Positions 2,830 through 32,000 of a stretch of 32,000 bases of DNA are shown here, piece after piece. The notes below the pieces were generated by a model that was not told the DNA's origin, ran no database searches, and saw nothing but the letters and a program-made list of their open reading frames with translations. Origin of the DNA: Fastidiosibacter lacustris (lineage in GTDB: Bacteria; Pseudomonadota; Gammaproteobacteria; Francisellales; Francisellaceae); contig NZ_QLIR01000011.1 of assembly GCF_003428155.1 (NCBI RefSeq), forward strand, positions 30,001 to 62,000, read 5' to 3'. The translations under genes were made by a program, and so were the position numbers. Numbering within the stretch: position 1 is the stretch's first letter; each line of letters begins with the position of its first letter.

Positions 2830-4302
2830 TTAAATTTCTAATTCAGGCCACAACATATCTACTTTATCGATAATATCTTGACGCATGGTGATAACTTCTC
2901 CCCATTCACGGGTTGTTTCGCCAGGTAATTTATTGGTTGCATCTAACCCCATTTTAGAACCTAAGCTTGATACTGGCGAGGCAAAATCTAAGTAGTCGAT
3001 TGGTGTGTTATCAATAAGTGTTGTGTCTCGAATCGGATCCATACGAGTCGTAATCGCCCAGATAACGTCTTGCCAAGAGCGTATATTAATATCTTCATCG
3101 ACAACAATAACAAATTTGGTATACATGAACTGACGTAAGAATGACCATACTCCCATTATTATACGTTTGGCGTGTCCTGGATACTGCTTTTTAATACTTA
3201 CTACTGCCAAGCGATAAGAGCAACCTTCTGGTGGTAGATAGAAGTCGACAATTTCAGGAAACTGTTTTTGGATAATAGGGACAAATATTTCATTAAAAGC
3301 AACACCTAAAACGGCAGGCTCATCCGGTGGGCGACCAGTATAGGTACTATGATAAATCGGATTTTTGCGATGCGTTATTTTTTCAACTGTAAAAACAGGA
3401 AAGGTTTCAACTTCATTATAATAGCCTGTGTGATCACCATATGGACCTTCTTTTGCAGTTTCATTTGGATAGATATAACCTTCCAAAATAATTTCAGCAT
3501 AGGCTGGTATCATGATGTCATCACCGTGTAGTAAAGATGGTGTGAGCTCTGTTTTACTACCGCGCAAAAGACCTGCAAAGGCATATTCAGAAAGTGTATC
3601 AGGAACTGGAGTTACAGCAGCTAAAGTTGTAGCAGGATCTGCGCCTAATGCAACACAAACGGGGAAAGGTTGATCAGGATAAGTTTTACACCATGCTTGA
3701 TAATCAAGTGCACCACCTCGATGATGAAGCCAACGCATGATAAGTTTATTTTTACCAATCACTTGTTGGCGATAGATACCTAAGTTTAAACGCTCTTTCC
3801 TTATACTATTAGTAATAGTAAGTCCCCAAGTAATAAGTGGTGCAGCATCTTTTGGCCAACAGGTTTGAATTGGCATTTGATAAAAATTAATATTATCTTG
3901 CTCAATAATTACTTCACGGCAAGGTCCATTTTTTATGACTTTAGGTGACATCTTTAATACCTGCTTGAGAATTGGCATTTTTTCCCAAGCGTCTTTTAAT
4001 CCTTTAGGTGGTTCTGGTTCCTTAAGATAGGCTAAAAGCTTACCAATTTCACGTAATTTGTTGACATCGTCTGTACCAAGAGCAAGGGCAATACGCTTTT
4101 CTGTGCCAAATAAATTTGTCAATACAGGCATGTCATAACCTTTTGGATTTTCAAATAAGAGTGCGGGACCTTTTTGGCGTAAGACGCGGGAAGAAATTTC
4201 AGTCATTTCAAGGAATGGTGAGACTTCTTTGTAAATACGTTTGAGTTCATTGCGCTCTTCAAGATAATCTAAAAAATTTCGTAAGTCTTTGTAATGAAGC
4301 AT
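2830..4302 (-). CDS. ubiD: 4-hydroxy-3-polyprenylbenzoate decarboxylase (UbiD family)
   Basis: I trimmed track ORF 2830..4410 to ATG 4300-4302 ([23 protein letters not shown]). This aligns with the N-terminus recalled for E. coli UbiD (..YNDLRDFLTLLEQQGELKRI..). The result is 490 aa versus about 497 aa in E. coli. Confidence 0.92.
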
Positions 4303-4431
4303 GTTAAGCCTAAAGATATATCTATAAAGGCGTATAGTAGCGGCTTTGAATGTAAAATCAAGGGTAAGCAATAAGAGGGAATAAAAATTTGCAATTAGTG
4401 TAGATAACATAAAAATTCATCGGTAATTATG

Positions 4432-4501: not shown

Positions 4502-4936
4502 ATGTCATTAGGAAAAGAAGATCTTAAACAAGCAGGATTAAAGATAACGCAACAAAGGCTGAAAATATTAAGAATTTTTGAAAGTTCACAGCAGCGCCAT
4601 TTATCAGCTGATGATGTGTATAAAATTCTACAACAGAACAGTGAAGACGTTGGTATTGCTACTGTCTATCGTGTATTGGCTCAGTTTGAGTCAGCAGGAA
4701 TTTTGCAACGCCTTAACCTTGGTCGTGAACAAGCGGTTTACGAGCTAGAATCAGATGATCATCACGATCATATGATTTGCGTGAAATGTCATAAAGTAGA
4801 AGAGTTTATTGATTATGTCATTGAATCAAGACAAAATAAAGCAGTCGAAGAGCTAGGTGGTAGGCTTATTGAGCATAGTTCAGTGCTTTATATTGAATGT
4901 AAAGATTGTATAGCAGCAGATCAATCAAAAAAGTAA
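4502..4936 (+). CDS. fur: ferric uptake regulator
   Basis: 144 aa. It has the recognition helix VGIATVYRVLAQFESAGI, the metal-site block HHDHMICVKCHKVEEF and a C-terminal CKDC. These are the canonical Fur family layout. Confidence 0.93.
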   Translation: MSLGKEDLKQAGLKITQQRLKILRIFESSQQRHLSADDVYKILQQNSEDVGIATVYRVLAQFESAGILQRLNLGREQAVYELESDDHHDHMICVKCHKVEEFIDYVIESRQNKAVEELGGRLIEHSSVLYIECKDCIAADQSKK

Positions 4937-10600: not shown

Positions 10601-11528
10601 CTGTTGCTGCTCCTGGATAAGGTGCAATTGCCGTTGGGTGATTGTGAGTTTCAACTTTTATCTGAATATGGATAGGCTCTCGCTTAAAGTGATATAAACC
10701 ATTTTGATCTTTTTGCAGACGTTCAGCTGCGTACCCGGCAATTACTGCGGCATTATCATGATAAGCGGATAAAATATTTTCTTTGTGGTGATCATAAGTA
10801 TTTTTTATCATCGAAAATAAACCATTTGGTTTTGCTTGACCATCGATGATCCAATCTGCTTTAAAGATCTTATGTCGACAATGCTCAGAGTTAGCTTGAG
10901 CAAACATCATAAGCTCAACATCGGTTGGATTACGACCCAAATTTTCAAAGGCATGAGCTAAATAATTTATCTCGTCTTCCGAGAGTGCTAAACCAAGTCT
11001 ATTATTAGTGTCATTTAATGCATTTTTACCGTGTTCTAGAAGAGGGATGATTTTGAGTATCCCTTGACCATGTGTGTTAGCAAATGGATTAATAGTATTG
11101 ATGTCAAAACTAAAACTTTGCGTCATCCGATCATGTAATACAGAAGCCATTTTGTTTAAGTTTTCTTTACTTAATATAACATTGGTTTGAAGGTAATATA
11201 CAGTTCCACGTTCGACTCGTTTAAGATCAGTAAAGCCACAGTTATGGAGTATATCTGTTGCTTTGGATGACCAGGGGGAAATTGTTCCTATGCGTGGAAG
11301 GACGATCAATGAAGTCCCAGATTTATCGTTAAGCTTACCTTTATCACCATAGTCTAAAAGTGCTTCAAGTTTCTTTTGCTGTGTATCACTTAAAGTATTG
11401 GCATAATCAATAAAATGAAGATATTCAGCTTGAATATTGGTGATATTAGGTTCAATCGATTGTAATTTCTTAAGCAGTTTTTGTTGGTCAAAAGAGGATA
11501 AGGCATCGTTACCAAACATTTGTAACAT
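7641..11528 (-). CDS. purL: phosphoribosylformylglycinamidine (FGAM) synthase, single-chain large form
   Basis: 1295 aa, the same length class as E. coli PurL. It has the N-terminal ALSSF..QKLL, the central [24 protein letters not shown] block and a C-terminal glutaminase domain with GMCNGCQM. Confidence 0.97.
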
Positions 11529-17288: not shown

Positions 17289-17651
17289 ATGTATAAACTT
17301 AAATTAAATGGTATAGCTTTAAATACTTATCTTGGTGTTTATGATTTTGAACAACAACAGATGCAAACCGTTCTAGTTGATGTAATTGTAGAGTTTAAAA
17401 ATATTCCCAAAGCCTGCATAAGTGACGCACTTGAAGATACTTTTTGTTACGCGCAAATAAACGAAGTGTTAATGAGAACGGCCGCATCAAAACGTTATCA
17501 ACTTATTGAGCATTTAGCGCAGTCTTTGCTAGATGCTTTGGTTTTACACCTTAATCATCCATTAAACGTCTATCTTGAGTTACATAAAACCCCACCTCTA
17601 GAGAATGTAGTAAATGCAAGTTTTTGTGTGGAGTATATATGCCAAAAGTAG
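17289..17651 (+). CDS. folB: dihydroneopterin aldolase
   Basis: 120 aa. The blocks LGVYDFEQ, D.FCYAQI, LIEHLAQ and ELHKTPP align with recalled E. coli FolB (IGVYDWEQ, DCLSYADI, LVERVAE, KLSKPGA). It overlaps the next gene by 13 nt. Confidence 0.82.
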   Translation: MYKLKLNGIALNTYLGVYDFEQQQMQTVLVDVIVEFKNIPKACISDALEDTFCYAQINEVLMRTAASKRYQLIEHLAQSLLDALVLHLNHPLNVYLELHKTPPLENVVNASFCVEYICQK

Positions 17652-18937
17652 TGTTAGGATTAGGGAGTAATTTAGGTGCTAAGCTTGATTACTTACGCAA
17701 AGCAGTTGATCTTATTGATAAACGTATAGCTAAAATCATTGCTACTTCAAAGATTTATCAAACATCAGCATTGTTGCCACAAAGTGCACCAGTAAGTTGG
17801 AATATAGATTACTATAATATGGCGCTTCTTATTGAAACAACGCTTGAACCACAAGCTCTTTTATTAGGGATTAAGGCAATTGAAACAGAAATGGGGCGTG
17901 ATGCACTACATGCGTTTTGGTCACCTAGAGAAATTGATATTGATATTCTGTGTTATGGAGATGTAACTTTAAGTAGTGATGCTCTTAATATTCCCCATAA
18001 GGCATTATTGGAGCGTAATTTTGCGTTAAAACCTTTGTTAGAGGTTTACCCTAATTGGCGTTATCCAAATAAAGACATAGATTTATATGAATACTTAAAA
18101 AAAATGGAAAAATTGAAGCTTGCCCCTTTTACTTTATCAGCAACTCAAATCATGGCAATTGTAAACTTATCAATAGATTCATTTTCAGCGGAAGAAGCTC
18201 AGCCACCAACTGTCGATGAATTTGCAGGTTATGTTATGAGATTGATTGAAGAAGGAGCGGAAGTCATTGATTTAGGTACAGAGAGTACTAAACCACAGGT
18301 AAAAGCAAAAACTGCTGAGAAAAATTGGCTCATGCTTCAGCCTTATTTAATTGTCTTAGATGAGTTGATAAAATATACTGGCTTATCAGTTACACCTAAA
18401 GTGAGCATTGATACCTACCATGCGCAAGTTGTTGAAAATGCCTTGCACTATTCATGTGTGAATATGATTAACGACGTTTATGGTATAGAAGCCCAAGCTA
18501 TTGCAAATCTTATTAAAGGCGCTGATATTAAATATGTCTTTATGCACCAATTAGGCAAAGCGGCGACAAACTACCTTGACATTAATCGCGATCCTGTTTT
18601 AGAAGTTATTGAGTATGCGCAACAAAGAATCGCGGATCTTATGTCGTGGGGGATGAAAAAAGAGCAATTAATATTTGATATAGGAATTGGTTTTGGTAAG
18701 CACGATTATCAAGCACGTGCCTTACTTAAGCATGTAGATAAAATTAAATCAGCGTTAGGCGTGGAAATACTGATTGGTCATTCGCGTAAGTCATCAGTTA
18801 TGCGAGTGGTTGAAGGCAAAAGCAATTTATACAAAGATATTGCAACGGCAATGATTGCTCATGAGCTTATCCAAAAAAATGTGGATTATCTTCGTGTCCA
18901 TAACGTTGATTTAACGAATATGGCAAGGCAGATATAA
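17639..18937 (+). CDS. folKP: bifunctional 6-hydroxymethyl-dihydropterin pyrophosphokinase / dihydropteroate synthase (HPPK-DHPS fusion)
   Basis: ATG 17639 has GGAG 5 nt upstream; the track start TTG 17624 is rejected. Residues 1-155 are HPPK (LGLGSNLG, FWSPREIDIDIL, LNIPHKALLERNFALKPL). Residues 156-432 are DHPS (IMAIVNLSIDSFS, SIDTYHAQV, MINDV, FDIGIGFGK, LIGHSRKS, LRVHNV). Confidence 0.9.
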   Translation: MPKVVLGLGSNLGAKLDYLRKAVDLIDKRIAKIIATSKIYQTSALLPQSAPVSWNIDYYNMALLIETTLEPQALLLGIKAIETEMGRDALHAFWSPREIDIDILCYGDVTLSSDALNIPHKALLERNFALKPLLEVYPNWRYPNKDIDLYEYLKKMEKLKLAPFTLSATQIMAIVNLSIDSFSAEEAQPPTVDEFAGYVMRLIEEGAEVIDLGTESTKPQVKAKTAEKNWLMLQPYLIVLDELIKYTGLSVTPKVSIDTYHAQVVENALHYSCVNMINDVYGIEAQAIANLIKGADIKYVFMHQLGKAATNYLDINRDPVLEVIEYAQQRIADLMSWGMKKEQLIFDIGIGFGKHDYQARALLKHVDKIKSALGVEILIGHSRKSSVMRVVEGKSNLYKDIATAMIAHELIQKNVDYLRVHNVDLTNMARQI

Positions 18938-18999
18938 GGCAGTCTAGATTGGTTAAACTAGCATGTTGTTATAGCTTCAAGTTTATAATTTGCTACAAT

Positions 19000-19037
19000 G
19001 TGTTCATTAGTCTTCAATGAACACTGGATTTTTGTTC
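19000..19037 (+). terminator. perfect 9-bp stem / 7-nt loop hairpin followed by a T-rich tract (folKP terminator or yadG 5' leader structure)
   Basis: GTGTTCATT (19000-19008), loop agtcttc, AATGAACAC (19016-19024), then tggATTTTTGTTCTT ending 2 nt before the yadG ATG. The stem is AT-rich with only 3 G:C pairs, so stability is modest. Confidence 0.35.
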
Positions 19038-19039
19038 TT

Positions 19040-19969
19040 ATGAGCTTTGAAAAAGCATTGTCGTTGGTCAATGTCAACAAAATTTATAAAGGTGGATTGC
19101 ACGCGGTTAAAGATATTAGTTTTGATGTTTATCCAGGTGATTTTTTTGCACTTTTGGGTCCAAATGGTGCTGGTAAATCAACCACCTTAGGCATGATTTC
19201 ATCTTTGGTTAACAAAACAAGTGGCAGCATAGAAGTGTGTGGTTTTGATACGGTAAAAGATGCGTATATGGCGCGTAAACATTTGGGTGTAATGCCGCAA
19301 GAAGTTAATGTAAATGTCTTTGAAACACCTTTACAGATCCTTTTAACCCAATCAGGTTTCTTTGGTATTTCACGTAATGAAACTGTTCCTTATGCAGAAA
19401 AGCTATTAAAAGACATGGCATTATGGGATAAAAAAGACACACAAGTCCGATTTTTATCAGGCGGAATGAAGCGCAGACTTATGGTTGCTCGTGCATTAGT
19501 TCATAAACCAAAGGTATTGATTTTAGATGAACCGACAGCAGGTGTAGATGTTGAGTTAAGGCAAATATTGTGGCAGCAGATAAAAGCTTTAAATGACAGG
19601 GGTTTAACCATTATTCTCACTACACATTATTTAGAAGAAGCAGAAAGCATGTGTAATCGTATTGCACTTATTCATAATGGTAAGCTTCATATCAGTTCAG
19701 ACATGAAAACTTTTTTGCGTTCGGTTGAAAAAGAAACTTATGTTTTTGATTTAAAGCAACCCATAAGCATGAATAAATTTAGTTGTGAATATGGTCAATT
19801 TACAGTTGTTGACCAGATGACTTTAGAAATTGAAGTAGGTAAAGATGTATCCTTGAATCAATTATTTGCAGGGTTATCCGAGCAAAATATAGAAGTGATA
19901 AGTGTTAAAAGCAAAACGAATAAATTAGAAAAATTATTTATTGATGTTGCTAGAGAAAAAGTGTGGTAG
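19040..19969 (+). CDS. yadG: ABC-2 type transporter ATP-binding protein (YadG-like)
   Basis: I trimmed the track ORF to ATG 19040 (MSFEKALSLVNVNKIY), giving 309 aa versus about 308 aa for E. coli YadG. It has Walker A GPNGAGKST, signature LSGGMKRR and Walker B LILDEPTAGVD. A YadH-like permease gene follows. Confidence 0.8.
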   Translation: MSFEKALSLVNVNKIYKGGLHAVKDISFDVYPGDFFALLGPNGAGKSTTLGMISSLVNKTSGSIEVCGFDTVKDAYMARKHLGVMPQEVNVNVFETPLQILLTQSGFFGISRNETVPYAEKLLKDMALWDKKDTQVRFLSGGMKRRLMVARALVHKPKVLILDEPTAGVDVELRQILWQQIKALNDRGLTIILTTHYLEEAESMCNRIALIHNGKLHISSDMKTFLRSVEKETYVFDLKQPISMNKFSCEYGQFTVVDQMTLEIEVGKDVSLNQLFAGLSEQNIEVISVKSKTNKLEKLFIDVAREKVW

Positions 19970-19974
19970 AGGAC

Positions 19975-20754
19975 ATGACAATTAAAGAATATTGGACGAT
20001 TTATTATACGCTTCTTAGAAAAGAAGTTGTGCGCATATTTAGAATATGGCCACAAACGATTTTACCATCTGCCATTACGATGAGTTTATATTTTTTAATA
20101 TTTGGCAAAGTCGTTGGTGCACGTGTTGGAATGATGGATGGCTTTGATTATATGCAGTTTATTACTCCAGGACTTGTTATTATGGCGGTGATTAACAACG
20201 CCTATGCAAATGTAGTTGGATCTTTTTATGGTGCGCGTTTTAGTCATTCAATCGAAGAATTACTTGTTTCTCCTGCTAATAACCATCTGATTATTTTGGG
20301 ATATATTTCGGGTGGGATTGTGCGTGGTGTAATTGTTGGTGTATTGGTAAGTATTGTTGCGGCACTCTTTGGTGGAATATCATTACATTTTCATAATCTA
20401 TTATTGATTATGCTTGCCTTTTTATTGTGTGGGGCGTTATTTTCATTGGGCGGGTTGCTCAATGGGATATTTTCCCAGAGCTTTGATGATACAACCATTT
20501 TCCCAACTTTTGTATTAACACCACTGATTTACTTAGGGGGTGTATTTTATGGTCTAAGCGTATTGCCGCCATTTTGGCAGCATATTGTTCAATATAATCC
20601 ATTGTTTTATATTGTTGATTTTGTGCGTTTTGCTTTTATTGGATATTCTTCAATGAACCCCACAATTGCTTTTGTTGCAATTATTATCTTTATCGTTGTT
20701 TTATATAGTCTTGCATGGTATTTATTATCGCGTGGTATTCGTCTGAAGTCTTAA
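19975..20754 (+). CDS. yadH: ABC-2 type transporter permease (YadH-like)
   Basis: 259 aa. It is collinear with recalled E. coli YadH (..RIWVQTLVPPVITMTLYFIIFG.., YMQFIVPGL, NAYANV.SSFFGAKF...IEELLV.P, FDD....PTFVLTPL.YLGGVFY....LPPFWQ). GTG 19963 is an alternative start. Confidence 0.82.
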   Translation: MTIKEYWTIYYTLLRKEVVRIFRIWPQTILPSAITMSLYFLIFGKVVGARVGMMDGFDYMQFITPGLVIMAVINNAYANVVGSFYGARFSHSIEELLVSPANNHLIILGYISGGIVRGVIVGVLVSIVAALFGGISLHFHNLLLIMLAFLLCGALFSLGGLLNGIFSQSFDDTTIFPTFVLTPLIYLGGVFYGLSVLPPFWQHIVQYNPLFYIVDFVRFAFIGYSSMNPTIAFVAIIIFIVVLYSLAWYLLSRGIRLKS

Positions 20755-20771
20755 ATTGAGTATTTTAATAA

Positions 20772-22421
20772 ATGAAAATTTCCATAGTTCAATTAAATTA
20801 CGTTATTGCTGATTTTGACTATAACTTTGAAAAAATAAGTAAAGCAATATATACACATAAAGATTCAGATTTGATCGTTTTTTCTGAACTGTGTATTACA
20901 GGTTACTATCCATATGATTTGTTAACTTATCCTGAAATTATTGATAGGCAAAATGAAGTAATTCAAAGAATTAAAGATTTAACAAAAAAATTACAGGTTG
21001 CTGTTATAATAGGTGCAGCTACAACAGTTTCAGCGCTTAAAAAGTTTCATAATAGTGCACTTGTAATTGATAAAGGTGAACTTGTATTTAGTTATCATAA
21101 GCAATTAATTCCAAGTTATGGTGTATTTGATGAAGCACGGCATTTTATTCCAGCTAAAAATAACCCCGTATTTTCATTTAAAGGTCAAAGCATAGCACTT
21201 TTGGTATGTGAAGATATTTGGTATGACAATCATCAAGGCTATGATTATAATCCTATCGACGCTTTATCGTCGATAGGATTAGACGTCACTATTGTATTAA
21301 ATGCCTCACCATCGATGTTAGGCAAATTTCGACAACGCCAACGCATTGTGTCTAATATTGCCAATAAACTAAAGTCACCTATTATTTATAGCTCACAAGT
21401 TGGTGGTTATGATGAGCTTGTCTATGATGGCGCAAGTTTTATTTGTAATAAAAAGGGCGAGCTTATCGCTCTAGCAAAGCATTTTGAAGAGGATGTAATT
21501 AGTGTTGACTTGGCAAATTTACCTTCTACGATATTGCCTTATCCTTATCAGAATCAGCCATATGCTTTAGTTTTAAAGCAGCTTACCTGTGGGCTTTATG
21601 ATTATGTGCATAAATGTGGTTTTAAGGGTGTGGTTGTGGGCTCATCTGGTGGCATTGATAGTGCTTTGACACTTGCTATTGCAACTTTAGCATTAGGTAA
21701 AGAAAATGTAAAAGCCATTACGATGCCATCAGCTTATTCTTCAGCAGGCAGCGTTGATGACTCTGTTAAGCTATGCCACAATCTTGAAATTGAGTTATTT
21801 ATCCGTGAGATCAAAGAAGAATTCTTATTAACTTGTCAGAATTTTGAAAAGGCATTTGGGCATCTACCTAAAAAACTCACCCAAGAGAATATGCAAGCAC
21901 GCATTCGTGGACGCATTGTGATGGAATATTCTAATGACAGCGGATTTTTGATGCTTACAACAGGTAACAAAAGCGAGTTGGCGGTAGGTTATGCAACCCT
22001 CTATGGAGATATGTGTGGTGCGTTGAATTGCATAGGTGATTTGTATAAACACGACGTTTATGCGTTAGCTGAATATATCAATCAATGTTATGGTGAGCTT
22101 ATCCCCAAAGCGATCATTGATAAAGCCCCATCTGCGGAACTTTCAGAAGGTCAGAAAGATTCGGATAGTTTACCGGATTACTACTATTTAGATGCTATGC
22201 TTAAACTCTATTTAGAACGTGATTTATTGCAAGAAACAGAAATTAAGCATCTACAAAAAATCGTTGATAAAGTGGATATAAAAGAGCAAAAACGCATTTA
22301 TAAAATGGTGGAATTTGCTGAATTTAAACGTAAGCAAGCACCACAAATTCTGTTTATTCAACGTCGACCTTTTGGAATAGGGCGCAGAATGCCAGTAACA
22401 GCAAAATTTCAAAAGCAATAG
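20772..22421 (+). CDS. nadE: glutamine-dependent NAD+ synthetase
   Basis: 549 aa. The N-terminal CN-hydrolase domain has a candidate Glu/Lys/Cys triad (FSELCITGY, YHKQLIP, LLVCEDIW). The C-terminal NAD synthetase domain has the ATP-pyrophosphatase motif VVGSSGGIDSAL. Confidence 0.92.
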   Translation: MKISIVQLNYVIADFDYNFEKISKAIYTHKDSDLIVFSELCITGYYPYDLLTYPEIIDRQNEVIQRIKDLTKKLQVAVIIGAATTVSALKKFHNSALVIDKGELVFSYHKQLIPSYGVFDEARHFIPAKNNPVFSFKGQSIALLVCEDIWYDNHQGYDYNPIDALSSIGLDVTIVLNASPSMLGKFRQRQRIVSNIANKLKSPIIYSSQVGGYDELVYDGASFICNKKGELIALAKHFEEDVISVDLANLPSTILPYPYQNQPYALVLKQLTCGLYDYVHKCGFKGVVVGSSGGIDSALTLAIATLALGKENVKAITMPSAYSSAGSVDDSVKLCHNLEIELFIREIKEEFLLTCQNFEKAFGHLPKKLTQENMQARIRGRIVMEYSNDSGFLMLTTGNKSELAVGYATLYGDMCGALNCIGDLYKHDVYALAEYINQCYGELIPKAIIDKAPSAELSEGQKDSDSLPDYYYLDAMLKLYLERDLLQETEIKHLQKIVDKVDIKEQKRIYKMVEFAEFKRKQAPQILFIQRRPFGIGRRMPVTAKFQKQ

Positions 22422-22763
22422 GAGTTTTAAATGAAAAAGGTAGCTGCGTTTGTATTATCATAAAATATGTTGATCTGTTAGATGAAATTGACAAGACCCA
22501 ATCACTTAAATATTTGAAAAAAGGTTAAATGATAAAGAATACTATAAAATATCAAAATACGATGGATTGGTAAGACAAAATTATATTACTTTATTTGCGA
22601 ATATCAGCATTCTTTAAATAAACTTGATAACCTTTTTACTAAAGGTTTAGAAATAACTCACAAAGATAGAAATAAAAAAGGCATCAAAATTTTATTGTGA
22701 CTGTGCTTTATCTCATTTAAGCTTGGAAGCTAAATGATATAAAGATGAAAGTTAGAAACCACT

Positions 22764-24029
22764 ATGTCAGTTGACAAACCAAAATATGCCATGTTATTTA
22801 CTCCAATTTTAAGCATGTGTATTTTAACTATTGGTAATACTTTTTATACAACTTATACCACGCTTGAATTAGAGCGTATGGGGCAGAGTAATTTTATTGT
22901 GGGTTTGATCTCTGCTGCTTATTTTACTGGAATGGTGCTAGGTTCTTATTTTAGTCAAAAGCTTATTTTGCGAATAGGTTATATTCGAGCATATGTCCTA
23001 TTTGCAACTTTGATGGGGTTAGGCGCTATCTCACAGGGTATATTCTATGACGTACCCATTTGGGGAATATCACGTTTTATTTGTGGTTATGCACTTGCTG
23101 GGCTTTTTATCGTTGTTGAAGCATGGTGCTTAGAGGGAGCAGGTAAGAGTCACAAAGGACTTGTATTGTCGATTTATTTGTTTATTTATTATTTTGTCCA
23201 AGCAAGCGGACAATTTTTATTAAATATTCCATTTAACAGCGTGTTGATGACCTTTTGTGTGATTTCCATTTTGGCATCGATATCGATTATCCCAGTGTGT
23301 TTGACACGTTTTGAAATGCCAAAACAGGAGCATCCTAATCTGCTTTCACCTGTTATCCTTTATAAAAAAGCACCACTTGGTATGTGGACAGCGCTTGTTG
23401 CCGGGATGATATTAGGGAGTATTTATACGATTTATCCATTATTTCTAAAACAAGCAAAGATTCCCATTGAAAGCATTTCGTATCTGATGTTTGCCATTAT
23501 TCTTGGTGGTATGTTGCTTCAATTACCAATTGGTAAAATATCTGATTTAGTTGATCGCAGGATTGTGCTTGTATCAATGTTGATAGGCTCGGTGTTTATT
23601 TCCATTTTGATTTGTATCTTTCATAATAATTTTTGGCAACTTGCGATTTTTTCATTTATCCTAGGTGGACTTACTTTTACTTTTTACCCTTTGTCTATTA
23701 GCTATTCTAGCGATTATTTAAGTGCCGATCAGTTGATAGGTATCGTTGGGATTTTAGCACTTTCTTATGGGATGGGATCAATGATAGGACCGCTTGGTGT
23801 GACTTGGCTTATGTCCTTGTTTGGACCGTTTGGATTTTTTATTTATGTTGGTTTTGTTTGTTTATTGCTTATGACTTACACTTTATGGCGTATACGTGTG
23901 CGTCAAGCACCCAATAATAATGAGAAGGTTGCATTTCAAAGCATGGCTGCTGAAACTTCTGTGGCGATAGAAGTCGTTTATGAACAGCAGTTAATGGAAG
24001 AAAAAGAAGCCCCTGCTCATAAGCAATAA
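22764..24029 (+). CDS. MFS transporter (YcaD-like)
   Basis: 421 aa and highly hydrophobic, with about 12 predicted TM stretches. The N-terminal half (AAYFTGMVLGSYFSQKLILRIGYIRAY...SRFICGYALAGLFIVVEAW) resembles the YcaD/YfkF-type MFS pattern as recalled. Substrate is unknown. Confidence 0.8.
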   Translation: MSVDKPKYAMLFTPILSMCILTIGNTFYTTYTTLELERMGQSNFIVGLISAAYFTGMVLGSYFSQKLILRIGYIRAYVLFATLMGLGAISQGIFYDVPIWGISRFICGYALAGLFIVVEAWCLEGAGKSHKGLVLSIYLFIYYFVQASGQFLLNIPFNSVLMTFCVISILASISIIPVCLTRFEMPKQEHPNLLSPVILYKKAPLGMWTALVAGMILGSIYTIYPLFLKQAKIPIESISYLMFAIILGGMLLQLPIGKISDLVDRRIVLVSMLIGSVFISILICIFHNNFWQLAIFSFILGGLTFTFYPLSISYSSDYLSADQLIGIVGILALSYGMGSMIGPLGVTWLMSLFGPFGFFIYVGFVCLLLMTYTLWRIRVRQAPNNNEKVAFQSMAAETSVAIEVVYEQQLMEEKEAPAHKQ

Positions 24030-24050
24030 ACTCTGCAAAATGATTTTTGA

Positions 24051-25106
<1,056 letters not shown>

Positions 25107-25153
25107 TAGATAAAAAGATCAAAGAAAATATAAAAAAATAAAAAGGTTTAAAA

Positions 25154-27535
25154 ATGAAATTCAGTCATCAATGGTTGAGCAATTATTTGGATGAAAGCCC
25201 CACAGTGAGTGTGCTTAAGGAAAAACTCACCACAGCAGGATTAGAAGTCGATTCAATTGAGGCGGTCGCACCACCTTTTAGTGGTGTTGTTGTAGCAGAA
25301 ATTAAAAGTATTGAAAAACATCGAGCTGCCGATAAGTTAAATATTTGCCAAGTAGATATTGGTGAAGATGAGCTATTGACTATCGTTTGTGGAGCAGGAA
25401 ATGTTTACGCCGGAATGAAAGCACCACTGGCAAAAATTGGAGCACGGTTGCCTGGTGATTTTAAAATCAAAAAAAGTGAGCTTAGAGGGCAAGAGTCTTT
25501 TGGTATGTTGTGCTCGGAAAAAGAGCTAGGCATAAGTGAAGAAAGTGAAGGTTTAATGGACTTACCTATTGACGCCCCTATTGGTATAGATATACGCCAG
25601 TATTTACAGTTGGACGATGATGTTATAGAAGTCGACTTAACGCCAAATCGCGCCGATTGTTTAAGTGTTTATGGTATTGCTAGAGAAGTGTCAGCCTTAA
25701 CAAGTTCAAAATTAATAAAATTACCAGTAGTTGAATTACAAGCAACACAAAAAGCATCTAAAACCATAATAAGCCAAGCAAGCACACTTTGTCCGCGCTA
25801 TTTTGGACGAATGATTAAAAGCGTTAATACTAAAGCTACAACACCTTTGTGGATGAAAGAGCGGTTACGTCGTTCAGGTTTGCGTTCAATTTCAGTTATT
25901 GTAGATATTACCAATTACGTTCTACTTGAACTTGGTCAGCCGATGCACGCATTTGATGCTGATAAACTAACAGGTAGTGTTTATACACGTATGGCAAAAG
26001 AGGGTGAGAAGATTATTTTGCTAGATGAGACTGAGGTGACTTTAAAAAGCAATACGCTTGTTATTGCTGATGATAACAAAGTGTTGGCAATTGCAGGTGT
26101 GATGGGTGGGCTTTATTCTTCGGTGACGGAAAACAGCAAGACTATATTCTTAGAAAGTGCTTATTTTACACCAGAGGCAATCGCAGGAAAAGCGCGTCAA
26201 TATGGACTTCACACCGATTCATCTCATCGATTTGAACGTGGTGTAGATCCTAATCTTTGTGCATATGCAATTGATTATGCAACTTATCTTATTCTTGATA
26301 TTGCTGGTGGAGAAATAGAAGATCTAGCAGTTGCAGATCACTATGTTGATGAAAACAAAATAATAACTTTGCGTTTGAGCAAGATTAATTCTATTTTAGG
26401 GATGAATTTTGAGACAAGTTATGTTGAGCAAATACTTCAATCATTGAATATCTCTATCAATAAATTATCACAAGATGCAAATGAAACACTTTGGCAGGTA
26501 ATCCCGCCAAGCTATCGTTTTGATATAGCAATTGAAGAAGACTTGATTGAAGAGGTTGGTCGTATTTATGGCTATCAAAACTTACCGATGAGTTTACCAG
26601 AAGTATCTTTGATACAACAGCAGGTATCTGAACAGGTAGTGGCGCTTAATCGTTTAAAAATAGTTTTGGTTGATCGTGGTTATCATGAGGTAGTGAATTA
26701 CAGTTTTATCGACCCTAAACTAGATGCTTTATTTTTTAACCAGGCGGGACTTACATTACAAAACCCAATTTCACAAGATATGTCAGTGATGCGCCAAGGT
26801 CTGATTCCTGGGTTAGTCAGTACTTTTAAGTTCAACTTAAACCGTCAACAGTCACGCATACGCATTTTTGAAGAAGGAGTGTGCTTTCAACCAGCTGAGC
26901 AGCTGGCACATGAATATTTGCATTTTGCAGGTCTTGCTTATGGCAATATCAATCCACTGAATTGGCAAGAAACAACTTTAGCAGACTTCTATTCTGTTAA
27001 AGCCGATGTGGAGGCGTTACTACAACTTAATAAAAAGTCGATTAATTATGTTACATGTGAAGATATCGATTGGTTGCACCCAGGTCAGTCTGCTTATATT
27101 TACCAAAACGGCGAGCAAGTTGGTGTGATTGGTATTTTGCATCCAAATATTATGAAAGTCATGCAGATTAAGGGGAAATCACCTGTCGTATTTGAGCTGC
27201 AAACTAGCAAAATTTCAAATCGAGATATTGCTAAGTTCATGGCAATTTCAAAATATCCAGCGGTTTCACGTGACATTGCGGTGATTGTTGATCGAAATAC
27301 AACAGCTCAAAGGTTAATCGATGCAGTGAATAAAGCAAATGTATCACATTTGAATCAAGTGGATTTATTTGACATCTATCAAGGCGAAAGCTTGCCTGAA
27401 GATAAGAAGAGTGTTGCTTTAAATTTAATATTTCAAGACAATACGCAAACGCTGACTGATGAAATGATGAATGAAGCAATTACTAAAATTCTTACCTCTT
27501 TAAAAACCCATGTGGATGCGAGTTTGCGTGAATAG
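25154..27535 (+). CDS. pheT: phenylalanine--tRNA ligase beta subunit
   Basis: 793 aa. The N-terminus MKFSHQWLSNYL matches E. coli MKFSELWLREWV. Total length and position immediately after pheS fit pheT. Confidence 0.96.
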   Translation: MKFSHQWLSNYLDESPTVSVLKEKLTTAGLEVDSIEAVAPPFSGVVVAEIKSIEKHRAADKLNICQVDIGEDELLTIVCGAGNVYAGMKAPLAKIGARLPGDFKIKKSELRGQESFGMLCSEKELGISEESEGLMDLPIDAPIGIDIRQYLQLDDDVIEVDLTPNRADCLSVYGIAREVSALTSSKLIKLPVVELQATQKASKTIISQASTLCPRYFGRMIKSVNTKATTPLWMKERLRRSGLRSISVIVDITNYVLLELGQPMHAFDADKLTGSVYTRMAKEGEKIILLDETEVTLKSNTLVIADDNKVLAIAGVMGGLYSSVTENSKTIFLESAYFTPEAIAGKARQYGLHTDSSHRFERGVDPNLCAYAIDYATYLILDIAGGEIEDLAVADHYVDENKIITLRLSKINSILGMNFETSYVEQILQSLNISINKLSQDANETLWQVIPPSYRFDIAIEEDLIEEVGRIYGYQNLPMSLPEVSLIQQQVSEQVVALNRLKIVLVDRGYHEVVNYSFIDPKLDALFFNQAGLTLQNPISQDMSVMRQGLIPGLVSTFKFNLNRQQSRIRIFEEGVCFQPAEQLAHEYLHFAGLAYGNINPLNWQETTLADFYSVKADVEALLQLNKKSINYVTCEDIDWLHPGQSAYIYQNGEQVGVIGILHPNIMKVMQIKGKSPVVFELQTSKISNRDIAKFMAISKYPAVSRDIAVIVDRNTTAQRLIDAVNKANVSHLNQVDLFDIYQGESLPEDKKSVALNLIFQDNTQTLTDEMMNEAITKILTSLKTHVDASLRE

Positions 27536-27541
27536 GGTTAG

Positions 27542-28063
27542 TTAATAACAGTACTCAATTGCTTTGAAAATTCCCTGTATGATTTGAACAGGTGAAGGAG
27601 GGCACCCTTTGACAACTACATCCACTGGAATAATCCCTTGAATTCCTCCTTCAACCGCATAACTGTCTTTAAAAACGCCTCCACAATGCGCACAATCACC
27701 TATAGCTAGAACTAACTTTGGATGAGGCATGGCCTCATAGGTTTTAACAAGCGCATCACGCATATTTTTGGTTATAGGACCTGTCACAAATAACATGTCG
27801 GCATGACGGGGACTTGCAACAAATCGTATACCATAGCTCTCAAGGTTATAAAAGGGATTGTTAGTTGCATGAACTTCAAGTTCGCAGGCATTACAAGAGC
27901 CGGCATCCACCATACGAATAGCAAGTGCTTTACCAAAACGTTGAGCAATTCTTTTTTCAAGTATCTTGCCAACTATTTCTAGATCATCAATATCATTAAC
28001 TATAGGGTTTATTTTTTCACTTTTAATACCTGTTTTAAGTAACTTTTTTGTAAACTTCCACAT
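27542..28063 (-). CDS. NuoB/HycG/HyfI-type small subunit of a group-4-hydrogenase-like complex ([4Fe-4S] ligands intact)
   Basis: 173 aa with the blocks DAGSCNACELE, SPRHADMLFVTGPIT, AIGDCAHCGG and GCPPSP. Cys57, Cys60, Cys124 and Cys154 show the canonical CxxC-(63)-C-(29)-CP spacing. GAGGA lies about 10 nt upstream of the ATG, and the start is 2 nt after the stop of the preceding gene. Confidence 0.88.
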   Translation of the reverse strand: MWKFTKKLLKTGIKSEKINPIVNDIDDLEIVGKILEKRIAQRFGKALAIRMVDAGSCNACELEVHATNNPFYNLESYGIRFVASPRHADMLFVTGPITKNMRDALVKTYEAMPHPKLVLAIGDCAHCGGVFKDSYAVEGGIQGIIPVDVVVKGCPPSPVQIIQGIFKAIEYCY

Positions 28064-28065
28064 GA

Positions 28066-29592
28066 TTAGCTGTCCTCACCACTGTAGCTTAAGTTAAAAG
28101 ATTTATTAATAAGTGGAAAATCAGCAACGATATTATTCATAACAGCATGACTTAATGCAGGCCAGTTTTGCCATGAAGGATCGTGGAAATGGCACCATGA
28201 AACTTTAGTATCATGAAGTTGGACTGCAATACATATAGGGCCTCTCCAACTCTCTACGCACATAATACTGATCTTTTCTGTTGAGGATTGATCTATGTCA
28301 AGTGCTTGTGTACAGTTATTGAATCCTAATTGCAAAAATTGTTCAATCATATCAATGCTTTGTAAGCATTCACGAAAACGCACATATACGCGTGCAGCGA
28401 CATCACCTGTTTCTGCCGTTATAGGTGTAAAATCAATTTCAGAATAAGGATAAAGTGTGCAGGATGCCCTGGCATCGATAGCAATGCCAGATGCCTTTGC
28501 GATTATACCTAAAACACCTAAAGATTGAGCAAGAGTATGCGTTAAAATACCGGTTGTTTTCAAGCGATCTTGAAGTCCATGGTGATCATGATAAATCTGC
28601 TCTAATTGGAACAACTGCTTTTTTACATCATTAAGGTGGTTGAGTAAATCATGTACTATAGATTTATCCCACATAGTCATATACTGTTGTGGGGAGATGG
28701 CATCCATCATATATCGATGATGTGTTAGCAGTTTATTCTCACGTACAAGTTTTTCTTTTAAGATGGAGAATTGCATTGCTAAGCTGATAAAACCGGTGTC
28801 GTTAATAATAGCACCAATATCACCGATGTGGTTAATCAAGCGTTCGCGTTCAAGTAAAATAGCACGTATACATTTTGTTTTAGCATCTATTTCAAAGCCA
28901 AGCTGCTTCTCACAAGCAAGTGCAAAAGCATAAGCATAAGCTACAGTAGTGTCACCACTTACTCTTCCAAGTAAAGAAGCTGCTTCTGACATGCTTTTAT
29001 TGATAAGTAAAGAATGAATGCCTTTATGTGTGTATCCCAATCGATCTTCTAGTTTTAAAATTCGCTCACCAACGATAGAAAAACGAAAGTGTCCAGGTTC
29101 GATAATTCCTGCATGCACAGGACCTACTGGAATTTCATGGACTCCTTCTCCTGAGACTTTGTTAAAAACATAATGTAATTTGGCAAAGCGACTTGATTTG
29201 CTGTAGGGATTTAAAATTCCCATTTTGAAATGACCATGATTTAGCCATGCACGTTTATCTTTTGCTTTTTTTGTTGGAATTTTGGTTAAATCGTGGATAG
29301 CTCTGTGTAATCTCTCATTTATAGGAAAGGCTTCACTTAAATCAATAAGCATTGGTCGTTTTGGATTTAGTCGAGACACAATGCAGAGCCAGTAGGCTTG
29401 ATAATAATACAATACATACCAGTTCGTTTCATTTGAAGAGGAGTCAAAAGCAATCCATTCTGTAAGCAAAAGACCATTTTGAGATTTAATTTCTTTAGCA
29501 AGAGGATATTGTAACCTAATATCAACAGATAAATATTGATAAGCCTTGATGTTATTAAAGTGTAAAAGATCATTCAGCATTGTTTTATTCAT
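28066..29592 (-). CDS. fused NuoC+NuoD / HycE-HyfG-type large-subunit homologue lacking the [NiFe] cysteine ligands
   Basis: 508 aa. Residues 1 to about 140 form a NuoC-like N-domain (PINERLHRAIHDL). The HycE/NuoD-type core follows (IPVGPVHAGIIEPGHFRFSIVGERILKLEDRLGYTHKGI). The L1 motif position reads RVSGDTTVAY instead of RxCGxCxxxH. The C-terminus reads NLSYSGEDS-stop instead of DPCxxCxx[H/R]. Confidence 0.88.
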   Translation of the reverse strand: MNKTMLNDLLHFNNIKAYQYLSVDIRLQYPLAKEIKSQNGLLLTEWIAFDSSSNETNWYVLYYYQAYWLCIVSRLNPKRPMLIDLSEAFPINERLHRAIHDLTKIPTKKAKDKRAWLNHGHFKMGILNPYSKSSRFAKLHYVFNKVSGEGVHEIPVGPVHAGIIEPGHFRFSIVGERILKLEDRLGYTHKGIHSLLINKSMSEAASLLGRVSGDTTVAYAYAFALACEKQLGFEIDAKTKCIRAILLERERLINHIGDIGAIINDTGFISLAMQFSILKEKLVRENKLLTHHRYMMDAISPQQYMTMWDKSIVHDLLNHLNDVKKQLFQLEQIYHDHHGLQDRLKTTGILTHTLAQSLGVLGIIAKASGIAIDARASCTLYPYSEIDFTPITAETGDVAARVYVRFRECLQSIDMIEQFLQLGFNNCTQALDIDQSSTEKISIMCVESWRGPICIAVQLHDTKVSWCHFHDPSWQNWPALSHAVMNNIVADFPLINKSFNLSYSGEDS

Positions 29593-31049
29593 GACTTTCC
29601 ACCTATGATGGAATATATAGCAGAATCAAGTAAGAAAATAGGCATATAAAGTCCTGCTATGATAACCAATATCAAATGAGCTCCCACTGTCCAGTAAATA
29701 TGTTTTGTATTTTTTAAATGAGTGATGGGAGTGTTTAATTGTCCAAAAAACAATGGCTGAGTTTTTAATAGTATGGCTAAAAATGCGAGTATCAGTCCTA
29801 CGACAAGCAAAATCATAAGACCAATATTAGCCTCCATTGCTGCTAGAATCAGTAGTAATTCACTTATAAACAATCCCGATGGTGGTAAACCAAGAATAGC
29901 CAAAAAAGAGATTAAAAATAAACTTGCGGTTATAGGAGATTTTTCAAATAATGCACGAATTTTTTGTAGTACTTGAGTATGAAATTGCTGAATTACTGTA
30001 CCAGATATTAAGAGCAAAGCAGTTTTAACTAAGGCATGTATCCAGATGTGTAGTATCGCTGTAAGTAATGCAAGCCTGTTGCCAATTCCAATTGCAATGC
30101 TGATAAGTCCCATGTGTTCAATTGAAGAGTATGCTAACAAGCGATTAAGTGTTCGTTGGCGAAATAGTGATAGGGCTGCAAAAAATAAGCTGATAAAGCC
30201 AAAGGTTAAGAAAAGGTAACAAGGAAAATTAATTAAGCCTGCGTTGGCAAATAATAGCTTAAACTTGAGCAAGGCAAATAACGCTAAATTAAGCAAAGCG
30301 CCTGATGATAAGGCATTTACCATTGGGTATCCTTCGGCATAGGCATCTGGCAACCAATTGTGTAATGGGACGAATCCGACTTTAGTACCATAACCAACAA
30401 AAAGAAATACAAAGCTGATGCTTAATAATTTGGCAGGAATTTGAGAGATATTTGTCATTAATTTTGTCCATAGTAAGCCTTCTTCTCCCAGACCATGAGT
30501 ATAAGCACCAAAATATAAAATCACAGTACCAAGTAGTGCAAACCCAATACCTACGCCGCATAAAATCAAATATTTCCATGAAGCTTCTAGCGCTTGTGGG
30601 GTTTGTCTTAATCCGACTAATGCAATACTGGAGATAGTAGCAAGTTCCATGGCAATCCACATCATGCCGATATTATTACTGAGTAATACAATCAGCATGC
30701 CTAGCAAGAACAATTGGTAAGTCGTATGATAAAAGCGATAAACTAAAGGATGTAAATGTGTTTTATTTTCATTATCCAGATAGCTAATGCTATAAAAACT
30801 TGTGCTCATTCCAATAAAGCTGCTAAGTATAATAAAAAGGACATTCAGTTTGTCACACATAAACCAGTCTTTGAAAAAAAATAGTGCTGTATCTTCAACA
30901 TATATTACATAGCCTAAAATAATGCTTATGATAAAGCTTAAACTGCATAATATAGCATTTACATGAGTCGCATATTTCCTGTTTTCTATCCAAGGCAATA
31001 GGACTAAAGCAATAACAGAAGGCAAGAGTAATAGCGTAATCAAGTTCAT
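29589..31049 (-). CDS. NuoL/M/N-type antiporter-like membrane subunit (HyfD/HyfF-like)
   Basis: 486 aa polytopic membrane protein. The family blocks WIAMELATIS (TM5-type Glu) and GYGTKVGFVPLHNWLPDAYAEGYPMVNALSSG (TM7-type Lys and His) are present. ATGA overlaps occur at both ends. Confidence 0.88.
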   Translation of the reverse strand: MNLITLLLLPSVIALVLLPWIENRKYATHVNAILCSLSFIISIILGYVIYVEDTALFFFKDWFMCDKLNVLFIILSSFIGMSTSFYSISYLDNENKTHLHPLVYRFYHTTYQLFLLGMLIVLLSNNIGMMWIAMELATISSIALVGLRQTPQALEASWKYLILCGVGIGFALLGTVILYFGAYTHGLGEEGLLWTKLMTNISQIPAKLLSISFVFLFVGYGTKVGFVPLHNWLPDAYAEGYPMVNALSSGALLNLALFALLKFKLLFANAGLINFPCYLFLTFGFISLFFAALSLFRQRTLNRLLAYSSIEHMGLISIAIGIGNRLALLTAILHIWIHALVKTALLLISGTVIQQFHTQVLQKIRALFEKSPITASLFLISFLAILGLPPSGLFISELLLILAAMEANIGLMILLVVGLILAFLAILLKTQPLFFGQLNTPITHLKNTKHIYWTVGAHLILVIIAGLYMPIFLLDSAIYSIIGGKS

Positions 31050-31699
31050 ATACGCTCCTTTAGTTTCTCAAATAACTGAACTTGGAAGGAACCATGCTCT
31101 TGCTGTATTCGGATTAAGAATAGTGTGAAAATCATAAAACCCATAAGGATATCAAAACTCATCCCAAGTTCGATTAGCCAAGGGAATCCTGTGCTTATCG
31201 CTGCGGCTAGAATAAAGATACTGTTTTCTAATACTAATAGACCCATTACTTGAGTGACAGTTTTTCTTCTAAAAGTAATGATTAATACAGCTACAAATGC
31301 ATTGGCAAGTCCAAGTGAAAATCCTGAAATGTAGCGATGAAGCATACTGTTGACCAACTGCTGTCCTAAAATTAATGCCAAGAGAATAAGCGCAGATGCT
31401 AGTAACAGTAGACTAGGCTTATTCAGTATTGGTTCAATACGTCCGGAAAGGTGTAAAAATTGAACTAATTTCCATAGTAAAAATGGTAAAAGAATAACTT
31501 TGATGCCAATGGTAATAATTAAAGAAATAAATACTTCCATGCTTGGTGCATAGATCGTTTCTGTGAGTATGTAACTACTTAAAAGCACATTCTGAATAAT
31601 TAAAAGTTTGATTACATTCGTAATGTAAGATTGGATTAACATTAAACTACTACATAGTAGCATTGAACTTATCAAAAAAAGCAACCAACTATGAATCAT
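31046..31699 (-). CDS. HyfE-like small membrane subunit (NuoK-related)
   Basis: 217 aa (E. coli HyfE is about 216 aa) and multi-TM. The membrane-embedded Glu block GLLVLENSIFILAAAI matches the recalled HyfE block GYCLMENGSHLVLALL. Its position between the NuoH-like and antiporter-like genes is as in hyf. Confidence 0.75.
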   Translation of the reverse strand: MIHSWLLFLISSMLLCSSLMLIQSYITNVIKLLIIQNVLLSSYILTETIYAPSMEVFISLIITIGIKVILLPFLLWKLVQFLHLSGRIEPILNKPSLLLLASALILLALILGQQLVNSMLHRYISGFSLGLANAFVAVLIITFRRKTVTQVMGLLVLENSIFILAAAISTGFPWLIELGMSFDILMGFMIFTLFLIRIQQEHGSFQVQLFEKLKERI

Positions 31700-32000
31700 G
31701 CTGTTGTTCCTATTAATTGTGTTAAAAGAATACCCAGAAAAGCAAGGAAAAGTGCTAAACCAAGGTACTCTGGTATTCTAAATATACGCACCTTAGTTTG
31801 TAGTGTTTCTGTAATTGCAAGTAGTGCCAATAATATAATAAGTTTGACTAAGGTTGTGATGAATCCAACTGTAATGGATAATAACGAAGTTTCTACCGCT
31901 AAACCAAAAGGAAAAAACAAATTGATAAAGATCAATAAAAATAATTCCAACTTTAACGCATTACTCCATTCTATAGCGGCTAAATATCTCCCTGAATATT
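31696..32000 (-). CDS. NuoH/HycD/HyfC-type membrane subunit, C-terminal part only (continues past window end)
   Basis: The minus-strand frame stays open from TGA 31696-31698 to base 32000 (..YSGRYLAAIEWSNALKLELFLLIFINLFFPFG...). The track's TTG start at 31950 is therefore internal. The (E)YSG-containing segment followed by TM helices is typical of the NuoH/HycD family. Confidence 0.7.
   Translation of the reverse strand, partial: YSGRYLAAIEWSNALKLELFLLIFINLFFPFGLAVETSLLSITVGFITTLVKLIILLALLAITETLQTKVRIFRIPEYLGLALFLAFLGILLTQLIGTTA

Follow-up and report, generated by a model that had tools for sequence, protein, structure and literature searches.

A six-gene operon related to complex I and group-4 hydrogenases, without nickel-iron ligands, in Fastidiosibacter lacustris

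For about 20 years, many bacterial genomes have been known to contain a class of small operons that resemble parts of both complex I and hydrogenases. This class has been described under three names: energy-converting hydrogenase-related (Ehr), hyfBCEFGI, and Hyq. Here we describe a member in a new host lineage, Fastidiosibacter lacustris (Thiotrichales). Its distal genes occupy positions 27542 to 32000 of a 32,000-nucleotide stretch of contig NZ_QLIR01000011.1, and this whole stretch is referred to below as the window. We consider it probable that the operon encodes a minimal Ehr/Hyq-type member of the complex I/group-4 hydrogenase superfamily, in which a redox reaction would be coupled to ion translocation. 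The Ehr class reportedly goes back to Coppi (2005) and Marreiros et al. (2013, BBA 1827:198). Its members include Geobacter GSU0739-0745, Nitrospira EhrL, and clusters in candidate phyla. Ehr is an umbrella term, and some of the clusters under it have extra subunits or lie beside formate dehydrogenase or NuoEF-like genes (PMC6349859).

The Hyq name comes from Azorhizobium caulinodans, in which hyqRBCEFGI (AZC_4360-4355) was described as encoding an "endo-hydrogenase" (Ng 2009, PMC2650096; Sprecher 2012, PMC3357923). Deletion of the operon slowed diazotrophic growth and altered H2 evolution, hyq expression was NifA dependent, and microaerobic H2 evolution was credited to Hyq (PMC2650096, PMC3357923). 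From whole-cell genetics only, the authors proposed a six-subunit H2:ubiquinone oxidoreductase (PMC2650096, PMC3357923). HyqG lacks both CxxC motifs, and its Ni-Fe site was called "uncertain, if not unlikely"; three cysteines (C258, C491, and C497 in A. caulinodans) are kept in all HyqG proteins (PMC3357923). Elsewhere, the operons of Cupriavidus metallidurans CH34 (Rmet_4666-4671) and Cupriavidus necator H16 (H16_A2196-2201) were read as an "incomplete" hyf operon (PMC2864759). The Acidithiobacillus ferrooxidans homologue was first counted as a group-4 hydrogenase and later as a non-hydrogenase by HydDB, and its subunits were undetected in proteomes of H2-grown cells (PMC7735108). Searching the literature on the aerobic six-gene clusters (H16_A2196-2201, hyfB-I), we found no study of their function. 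A sequence-only reading of the window had assigned the operon to a class without an established role. That is fair as far as biochemical support goes, but the hyq genetics had suggested H2:ubiquinone oxidoreduction (PMC2650096, PMC3357923).

The window contains the distal four and a third of six genes, in the order hyfB-C-E-F-G-I, all on the minus strand. In the direction of transcription, they begin with the 3' end (about 101 codons) of a HycD/NuoH/HyqC-like membrane subunit gene (31696-32000), which continues past the window edge. This is followed by genes for a HyfE/HyqE-like small membrane subunit of 217 residues (31046-31699), a HyfF/NuoM-N-type antiporter-like membrane subunit of 486 residues (29589-31049), a fused NuoC-NuoD/HycE/HyqG-like large subunit of 508 residues without Ni-Fe ligands (28066-29592), and a NuoB/HycG/HyqI-like small subunit of 173 residues (27542-28063). 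Three junctions are 4-nucleotide overlaps reading ATGA on the coding strand (31696-31699, 31046-31049, and 29589-29592). The large- and small-subunit genes are separated by a 2-nucleotide gap (28064-28065) with no gene in between. Downstream, pheT (25154-27535, plus strand) is convergent to the small-subunit gene, and the two stops are 6 nucleotides apart (27536-27541). A check of open reading frames (ORFs) and junctions found all of this where the sequence-only reading had put it, including the five minus-strand genes and the adjacent pheT stop. A scan of 27200-27900 found no terminator-like hairpin between the convergent stops. Therefore, any termination signals for pheT and the small-subunit gene would lie inside the opposing coding sequences.

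The rest of the operon was read from contig JAMBMW010000008.1 of "Candidatus Nebulobacter yamunensis" (locus L001), which is 99.85% identical to window positions 18066-32000 (21 differing positions among 13,935). The order there is metK, a 95-nucleotide spacer, HyfB-like, NuoH/HycD-like, HyfE-like, HyfF-like, large subunit, small subunit, and convergent pheT. Past base 32000, where the sequence-only reading had advised looking, lie the remainder of the NuoH-like gene (320 residues in full; L001 6935-7897), the HyfB-like first gene of the operon (645 residues), and then metK. That reading had allowed for a NuoI/HyfH-type gene or hyp or fdh genes just upstream, and L001 has none. At the L001 locus, no NuoI/HyfH-type, HyfA/HycB-type, hyp, hycI, or fdh gene was found in the operon, in the 5 kb upstream, or in the 10 kb downstream. 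"Ca. Nebulobacter yamunensis" is an obligate endosymbiont of the ciliate Euplotes with a genome almost that of F. lacustris (PMC9837558). Its genome has 2.1 Mb and 191 pseudogenes, and the six-gene operon is intact there and in F. lacustris. In the part of the operon inside the window, the two sequences differ at 7 nucleotides, 5 of them nonsynonymous (G423E in the large subunit; R325K, T330A, and T430I in the HyfF-like subunit; P173A in the HyfE-like subunit). These are too few to estimate selection, and there is no frameshift and no disrupted gene.

The subunits were assigned with Pfam and NCBIfam models, PDB sequences, and a structure model. The small subunit matches PF01058 (Oxidored_q6; 2.5e-31) and scores above the cut-off of the NCBIfam NuoB subfamily. 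The large subunit matches PF00346 (Complex1_49kDa; 4.1e-26), and its best PDB sequence match is Escherichia coli HycE (7z0s_E, 2e-31). For the antiporter-like subunit, the NCBIfam model of hydrogenase 4 subunit F gives 1.3e-128 and PF00361 (Proton_antipo_M) gives 1.2e-45, and the HyfB-like protein seen in L001 matches hydrogenase 4 subunit B (5.6e-179); both also score against Mrp A/D models. Searched alone, the NuoH-like fragment of about 100 codons at the window edge gave no family match. It is identified as NuoH-like because the full L001 gene matches PF00146 and HycD (7z0s_D, 1.8e-31). The HyfE-like protein spans positions 8-214 of 216 in the NCBIfam "hydrogenase 4 membrane subunit" (HyfE) model at 1.8e-10, below the curated cut-off, and it has no Pfam match and no PDB sequence relative. 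Pfam did not detect the NuoC-like N-terminal domain in the window's large subunit, but PF00329 did find it in relatives. An AlphaFold model of the large subunit (pTM 0.83) has a fused NuoC+NuoD architecture, and its fold matches are led by HycE 7z0s_E (full length, TM 0.78), followed by the Aquifex and E. coli fused NuoCD proteins. The Hyf/Hyc-like placement made from the sequence, as opposed to an ordinary nuo or mrp operon, is upheld by the HycE, HycD, HyfF, and HyfB matches. Of the individual subunit names, NuoB, NuoD, and HyfF were recovered directly, HyfE stayed below threshold, NuoH was reached only through L001, and NuoC only through the model and the relatives.

When the large subunit was aligned with HycE, RVCGICGFAH became RVSGDTTVAY and DPCYSC became NLSYSG. 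The Ni-Fe ligand positions are occupied by S212, T215, S502, and G505, and all four cysteines are thus replaced. This alignment confirms the cysteine loss noticed earlier, and with the loss being real, the Ehr-type assignment holds as well. The protein ends 3 residues past the DPCYSC-aligned motif, leaving no C-terminal extension to cleave. Its sequence is 100% identical to WP_116964181.1 of F. lacustris. The RefSeq label is "Ni,Fe-hydrogenase III large subunit" or "hydrogenase large subunit," even though all four Ni-Fe ligands are absent, and the labels of relatives include "NADH-quinone oxidoreductase subunit C." Both kinds of name are misleading.

Conservation was examined in 80 related loci with 81 large subunits, and in 69 family members for the small-subunit cysteines. 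The large subunit has no family-wide conserved cysteine. Among the small-subunit cysteines, C57, C60, and C124 occur in all 69 members and C154 in 68; the motif is the CxxC of hydrogenases rather than the CC of complex I. At a threshold of 95% or more, the large subunit has 101 conserved residues (none of them cysteine), the HyfF-like subunit has 106, and the HyfB-like subunit has 116. The NuoH-like subunit has 70, among which Glu, Asp, Arg, and Lys are frequent. E165 of the large subunit is invariant and aligns with Glu21 of MbhL. This MbhL residue is a proposed proton shuttle on the β1-β2 loop and is structurally equivalent to His38 of Nqo4 (PMC11228991). The HyfE-like subunit has three intramembrane glutamates conserved at the same 95% threshold (E89, E158, and E177). 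In the HyfF-like subunit, the residues at or above the 95% threshold include E135 (transmembrane helix 5 [TM5]), K223 (TM7), H230, H312, H334, H338, K342, and E397 (TM12). The sequence-only reading had stated that this antiporter-like subunit keeps its conserved Glu, Lys, and His. This was right for the TM5 Glu, the TM7 Lys, the His residues, and the TM12 Glu but not for TM8, the central residue of which is N254. That position is Asn in at least 95% of the family, whereas it is Lys in MbhH, MbsH, and NuoM.

The relatives came from a search of one-genome-per-species GTDB contigs with two short large-subunit motifs, which gave at least 600 matches, of which 599 were confirmed. From these confirmed matches, at least 599 in number, 80 loci were kept for comparison. 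The species-genome matches listed are relatives of 38 to 45% identity, and the window's own clade is not among them. That clade consists of Fastidiosibacter and low-GC metagenomic relatives (49 to 64% identity) and forms a separate branch, the NuoC-like domain of which is too diverged for Pfam to detect. Every locus that is long enough (about 60 of the 80) has the same six genes in the same order, and the remaining cut contigs hold consistent partial runs. The sampled loci come from Beta-, Gamma-, and Alphaproteobacteria, Acidobacteria, and Nitrospirae and include Burkholderia, Paraburkholderia, Rhodoferax, Gallionella, Thiobacillus, Acidithiobacillus, Rhodanobacter, Steroidobacter, Bradyrhizobium, Rhodopseudomonas, and Azospirillum. 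The operon is real and conserved, and it probably encodes a functional machine. The family-wide conservation of key residues and of gene order agrees with the sequence-only reading on this point, which had argued for such a machine and not a relic.

We also clustered the ORFs within 6 kb on each side of 83 loci. No neighbor or soluble partner gene is conserved family-wide. Therefore, the missing electron-donor module and NuoI-type subunit are a trait of the family and not a local accident. Flanking genes that recur do so in a scattered way: histidine kinases (16 loci), metG (9), a spermidine-synthase-like methyltransferase (9), SulP transporters (5), a pyridine-nucleotide-disulfide oxidoreductase (5), and a small helix-turn-helix gene that lies upstream in only 5 sampled loci, including Bradyrhizobium locus L078. 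A carbonic-anhydrase/CO2-hydration module (CupA/DabA-like) was considered and rejected, as there is no such ORF in the operon and no such family shared in the flanks. Metagenome-assembled genomes of Aquabacterium and Methylibium (L013:2-3491 and L038:7-2704) have a paralogous Ehr-like cluster directly upstream of the six-gene operon. This second cluster comprises HyfF-like, large, and small subunits, and its large subunit ends in DFPICNKSFDLSYCGNDL, a third cysteine pattern.

Hyq is the relative with experimental data, and the operon in the window resembles it in several ways. Both have six structural genes in the order B-C-E-F-G-I and no NuoI-type subunit; both have a fused NuoC::NuoD large subunit (about 504 residues in Hyq and 508 here) without CxxC motifs; and in both, the NuoB-like small subunit retains four conserved cysteines, the expected ligands of an N2-type 4Fe4S cluster. 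With the window protein as the query, loci of the hyq-carrying genera Bradyrhizobium, Rhodopseudomonas, and Azospirillum were recovered. However, the large subunits are only about 38 to 43% identical, and the three HyqG cysteines (in GAICNDA and DFPLCNKSFNCSYSG) are replaced by I263, I495, and L501 in the window. Furthermore, the window's locus has metK directly upstream in place of hyqR and a NifA/sigma-54 context (neither was found at the L001 locus, where metK is 95 nucleotides upstream of the HyfB-like gene), and its host is a small-genome bacterium of the Thiotrichales, not a known diazotroph.

In the alignment, all three Hyq cysteines are present in 14 of the 81 large subunits, from alphaproteobacterial-type loci. 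The other 67 lack the trio and have Ile, Gly, Ala, or Val at the first position, Ile at the second, and Leu at the third; one of them keeps the first Cys only. On this pattern, the family splits in two: the three-cysteine alphaproteobacterial branch is true Hyq, and the cysteine-free branch, to which the complex in the window belongs, is much larger. Because of this split, the Azorhizobium results are not automatically transferable to the cysteine-free members. Large subunits of the alphaproteobacterial type (at about 10001-11260) are found in loci L041, L061-L066, L069, L073, L075-L078, L081, and L082.

How might a complex of this composition work? In the redox-coupled ion-translocating complex that we favor, the membrane arm would be built from the HyfB-like and HyfF-like antiporter-like subunits, the HyfE-like subunit, and the HycD/NuoH-like subunit. 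The peripheral arm would have only the fused NuoC-NuoD-like large subunit and the NuoB-like small subunit. The single [4Fe-4S] cluster predicted in the small subunit would pass electrons between two partners. With one cluster and no NuoI-type subunit, both redox partners would have to reach the cluster directly. The first would sit in a cavity where the large, small, and NuoH-like subunits meet and is most plausibly membrane ubiquinone/ubiquinol. A membrane quinone is suggested because ubiD is encoded in the window, the hosts are aerobic and contain ubiquinone, and complex I provides an analogy. The second partner may, at a guess, be a diffusible soluble carrier (ferredoxin or flavodoxin) that docks at the vacant place of NuoI/HycF. 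Coupling to proton or ion translocation in the antiporter-like subunits might proceed via the charged loops of the NuoH-like subunit and the conserved β1-β2 loop, where E165 is invariant. Whether the complex pumps or instead runs backward on the proton-motive force, yielding low-potential reductant, is likewise a guess.

Several points weigh against this proposal. In the alignment with Nqo4 of Thermus thermophilus, the quinone ligand Tyr87 corresponds to G213, and the position of His38, the other quinone ligand, falls at I164/E165. Therefore, with Tyr87 replaced by Gly and His38 by Glu, quinone binding is not backed by the known ligands. The change from Lys to Asn in TM8 of the HyfF-like subunit means that one proton path may be altered. 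AlphaFold confidence is low at the interface segments of the large subunit (138-189 and 485-508). A soluble partner gene is the very thing that the flank clustering failed to find near any locus, and we know of no biochemical evidence for any family member. Finally, Azorhizobium genetics credit the orthologous operon with both H2 uptake and H2 evolution (PMC2650096, PMC3357923); should this be correct, these proteins would contain a site with unknown H2 chemistry.

A more specific version can be offered for the cysteine-free complexes of the beta/gamma type, the present one included, although we regard it as rather unlikely. They might be proton-motive-force-driven quinol:ferredoxin or quinol:flavodoxin oxidoreductases, with the N2-like [4Fe-4S] cluster as the sole cofactor and a free 2x[4Fe-4S] ferredoxin docking in place of the missing NuoI. 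Or else an invariant pocket of Ser, Asp, Thr, Asn, and Tyr at the position of the Ni-Fe site might carry out a novel proton-coupled chemistry.

Among the competing explanations, one would dispense with redox chemistry. The operon could encode a redox-independent, Mrp-like cation/proton antiporter, with the NuoB/NuoCD module serving only as a structural part or gating transport as a sensor of redox state or iron. The family loci have no electron-input module, NuoI-type subunit, or conserved partner gene, the known catalytic ligands (Ni-Fe cysteines and quinone Tyr/His) are all absent, and the scores of the two antiporter-like subunits against the Mrp A/D models fit this idea too. However, the four cluster cysteines and about 100 conserved large-subunit residues, including RxSGDxT and DFPLINKSFNLSYSG, the motifs of the former active site, exceed what a scaffold needs. 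There are also no equivalents of MrpB, E, F, or G, whereas the HycD-like and HyfE-like coupling subunits are kept. We therefore judge an Mrp-like antiporter to be unlikely.

The Azorhizobium proposal taken at face value would make the complex a true H2-metabolizing endo-hydrogenase (H2:ubiquinone oxidoreductase), with an unconventional site lacking the Ni-Fe cysteines. The gene set and order are those of hyqBCEFGI, the fused CxxC-less large subunit and the four-cysteine small subunit are alike, and the proton-shuttle Glu of group-4 hydrogenases is kept as E165. To our knowledge, there is no hydrogenase without a cysteine-bound metal, which counts against this explanation. The three cysteines conserved in alphaproteobacterial HyqG (C258, C491, and C497) correspond to I263, I495, and L501 in the window, and 67 of the 81 large subunits lack the trio. 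The locus has no hyp or hycI gene and no hyqR or NifA context, and the large subunit has no C-terminal extension. The growth and H2 evolution phenotypes of the A. caulinodans hyq deletion speak for the explanation (PMC2650096, PMC3357923), but their basis is whole-cell genetics only, and the Acidithiobacillus homologue is a HydDB non-hydrogenase that was undetected during growth on H2 (PMC7735108). An endo-hydrogenase is, in our judgment, decidedly improbable for this locus. It is more improbable still, to the point of dismissal, that the operon is a functionless, decaying remnant of hydrogenase-4 or formate hydrogenlyase without hyfA, D, H, J, hyp, and fdhF, as the "incomplete" hyf operon of early genome papers (PMC2864759) and the RefSeq name "Ni,Fe-hydrogenase III large subunit" might imply, because the six genes are intact and keep one order in several phyla, have translational-coupling overlaps, encode hundreds of conserved residues, remain intact in a reduced, pseudogene-rich 2.1-Mb endosymbiont genome, and have the GC content of the surrounding housekeeping genes.

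The neighborhood of the operon is made up of housekeeping genes: thrBC, ubiD, fur, pyrG, purL, fumC, dacB, folB, folKP, nadE, and pheST are all in the window. The GC content of the operon equals that of these adjoining genes. The operon is not a recent island. The ubiD gene (2830-4410, minus strand) encodes a UbiD-family decarboxylase of 526 residues, and a gene for a Fur-family regulator adjoins it (4502-4936, plus strand). The presence of ubiD indicates that the organism makes ubiquinone, which bears on a quinone-linked role. At 17289-18937 (plus strand), folB is followed by one ORF of 437 residues that fuses HPPK (FolK) and dihydropteroate synthase (FolP). A sigma-70-like TATACA-17-TATAAT sequence lies at L001:4944-4972, in the 95-nucleotide spacer after metK and about 35 nucleotides before the HyfB-like start, but the region has no more matches of this kind than chance would give. 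Overall, promoter and terminator scans gave results no better than chance, and no Rfam families or tRNAs were found in the window or in L001.

No simpler relatives of complex I are known than the Ehr/Hyq-type complexes, which have six subunits and probably contain a single iron-sulfur cluster. Hundreds of aerobic bacteria possess them, among these the genetically tractable Cupriavidus necator, Rhodopseudomonas palustris, Bradyrhizobium, and Burkholderia. The sole experimental claim for the class, a hydrogenase without Ni-Fe ligands, is chemically puzzling. The function of these complexes bears on how redox reactions and ion pumps are coupled in the superfamily, on the descent of complex I from hydrogenases, and on whether aerobes possess an overlooked energy-linked redox route. 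What the present locus adds is an operon kept intact in a 2.1-Mb genome and in an obligate endosymbiont twin. If the quinol:ferredoxin version were true, it would provide aerobes with a third route to low-potential reductant, beside Rnf and Fix, and the Azorhizobium hyq phenotypes would become effects on the electron supply of nitrogenase.

Comparison with the other known systems places the operon as follows. It shares with Ehr members the hydrogenase-like large and small subunits without Ni-Fe ligands and the NuoL-, HyfE-, and NuoH-like membrane subunits. It has PF00346/HycE homology, lacks both CxxC motifs, and has a NuoB-, NuoH-, and antiporter-like set without NuoEFG, bounded by metK and pheT. 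It differs from Ehr clusters that have adjoining modules in that it stands alone. It has the six genes of the Cupriavidus and Acidithiobacillus hyfBCEFGI operons, without hyfA, D, H, or J (PMC2864759, PMC7735108; the Cupriavidus operons are likened by description), and sampled loci from Burkholderiaceae and Acidithiobacillus have the cysteine-free pattern. However, identity is about 39 to 45%, and the window's clade is a separate branch.

E. coli Hyc (7z0s) provides the closest solved structures for the large and NuoH-like subunits, and the NCBIfam Hyf models are the best for the B, E, and F subunits. Unlike Hyc and Hyf, the operon has no Ni-Fe cysteines, HycF/HyfH, HycB/HyfA, HyfD, C-terminal cleavage peptide, or fdhF, hyp, or hycI genes. 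Across the 80 related loci, too, no HycF/HyfH, HycB/HyfA, fdhF, hyp, or hycI gene is conserved. Identity as a [NiFe] hydrogenase was rejected because the four metal cysteines are gone and there is no cleavable C-terminal extension and no accompanying maturation gene. In contrast to Mrp, the window has peripheral NuoB- and NuoCD-like subunits, and no MrpB-, E-, F-, or G-like genes were found. Identity as complex I was rejected too, since there are only six genes and core subunits and quinone ligands are missing. NuoA, I, J, K, and E-G are lacking as separate genes, Tyr87 is replaced by Gly213, and the small-subunit motif is CxxC instead of CC. In MBH and MBS, ferredoxin input relies on a retained NuoI-like subunit, whereas this operon has none. 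What complex I, MBH, and MBS have in common with it is a NuoB-NuoD-NuoH junction coupled to antiporter-like subunits. MBS also provides a precedent for a member of this superfamily that has lost hydrogenase chemistry and reduces another substrate.

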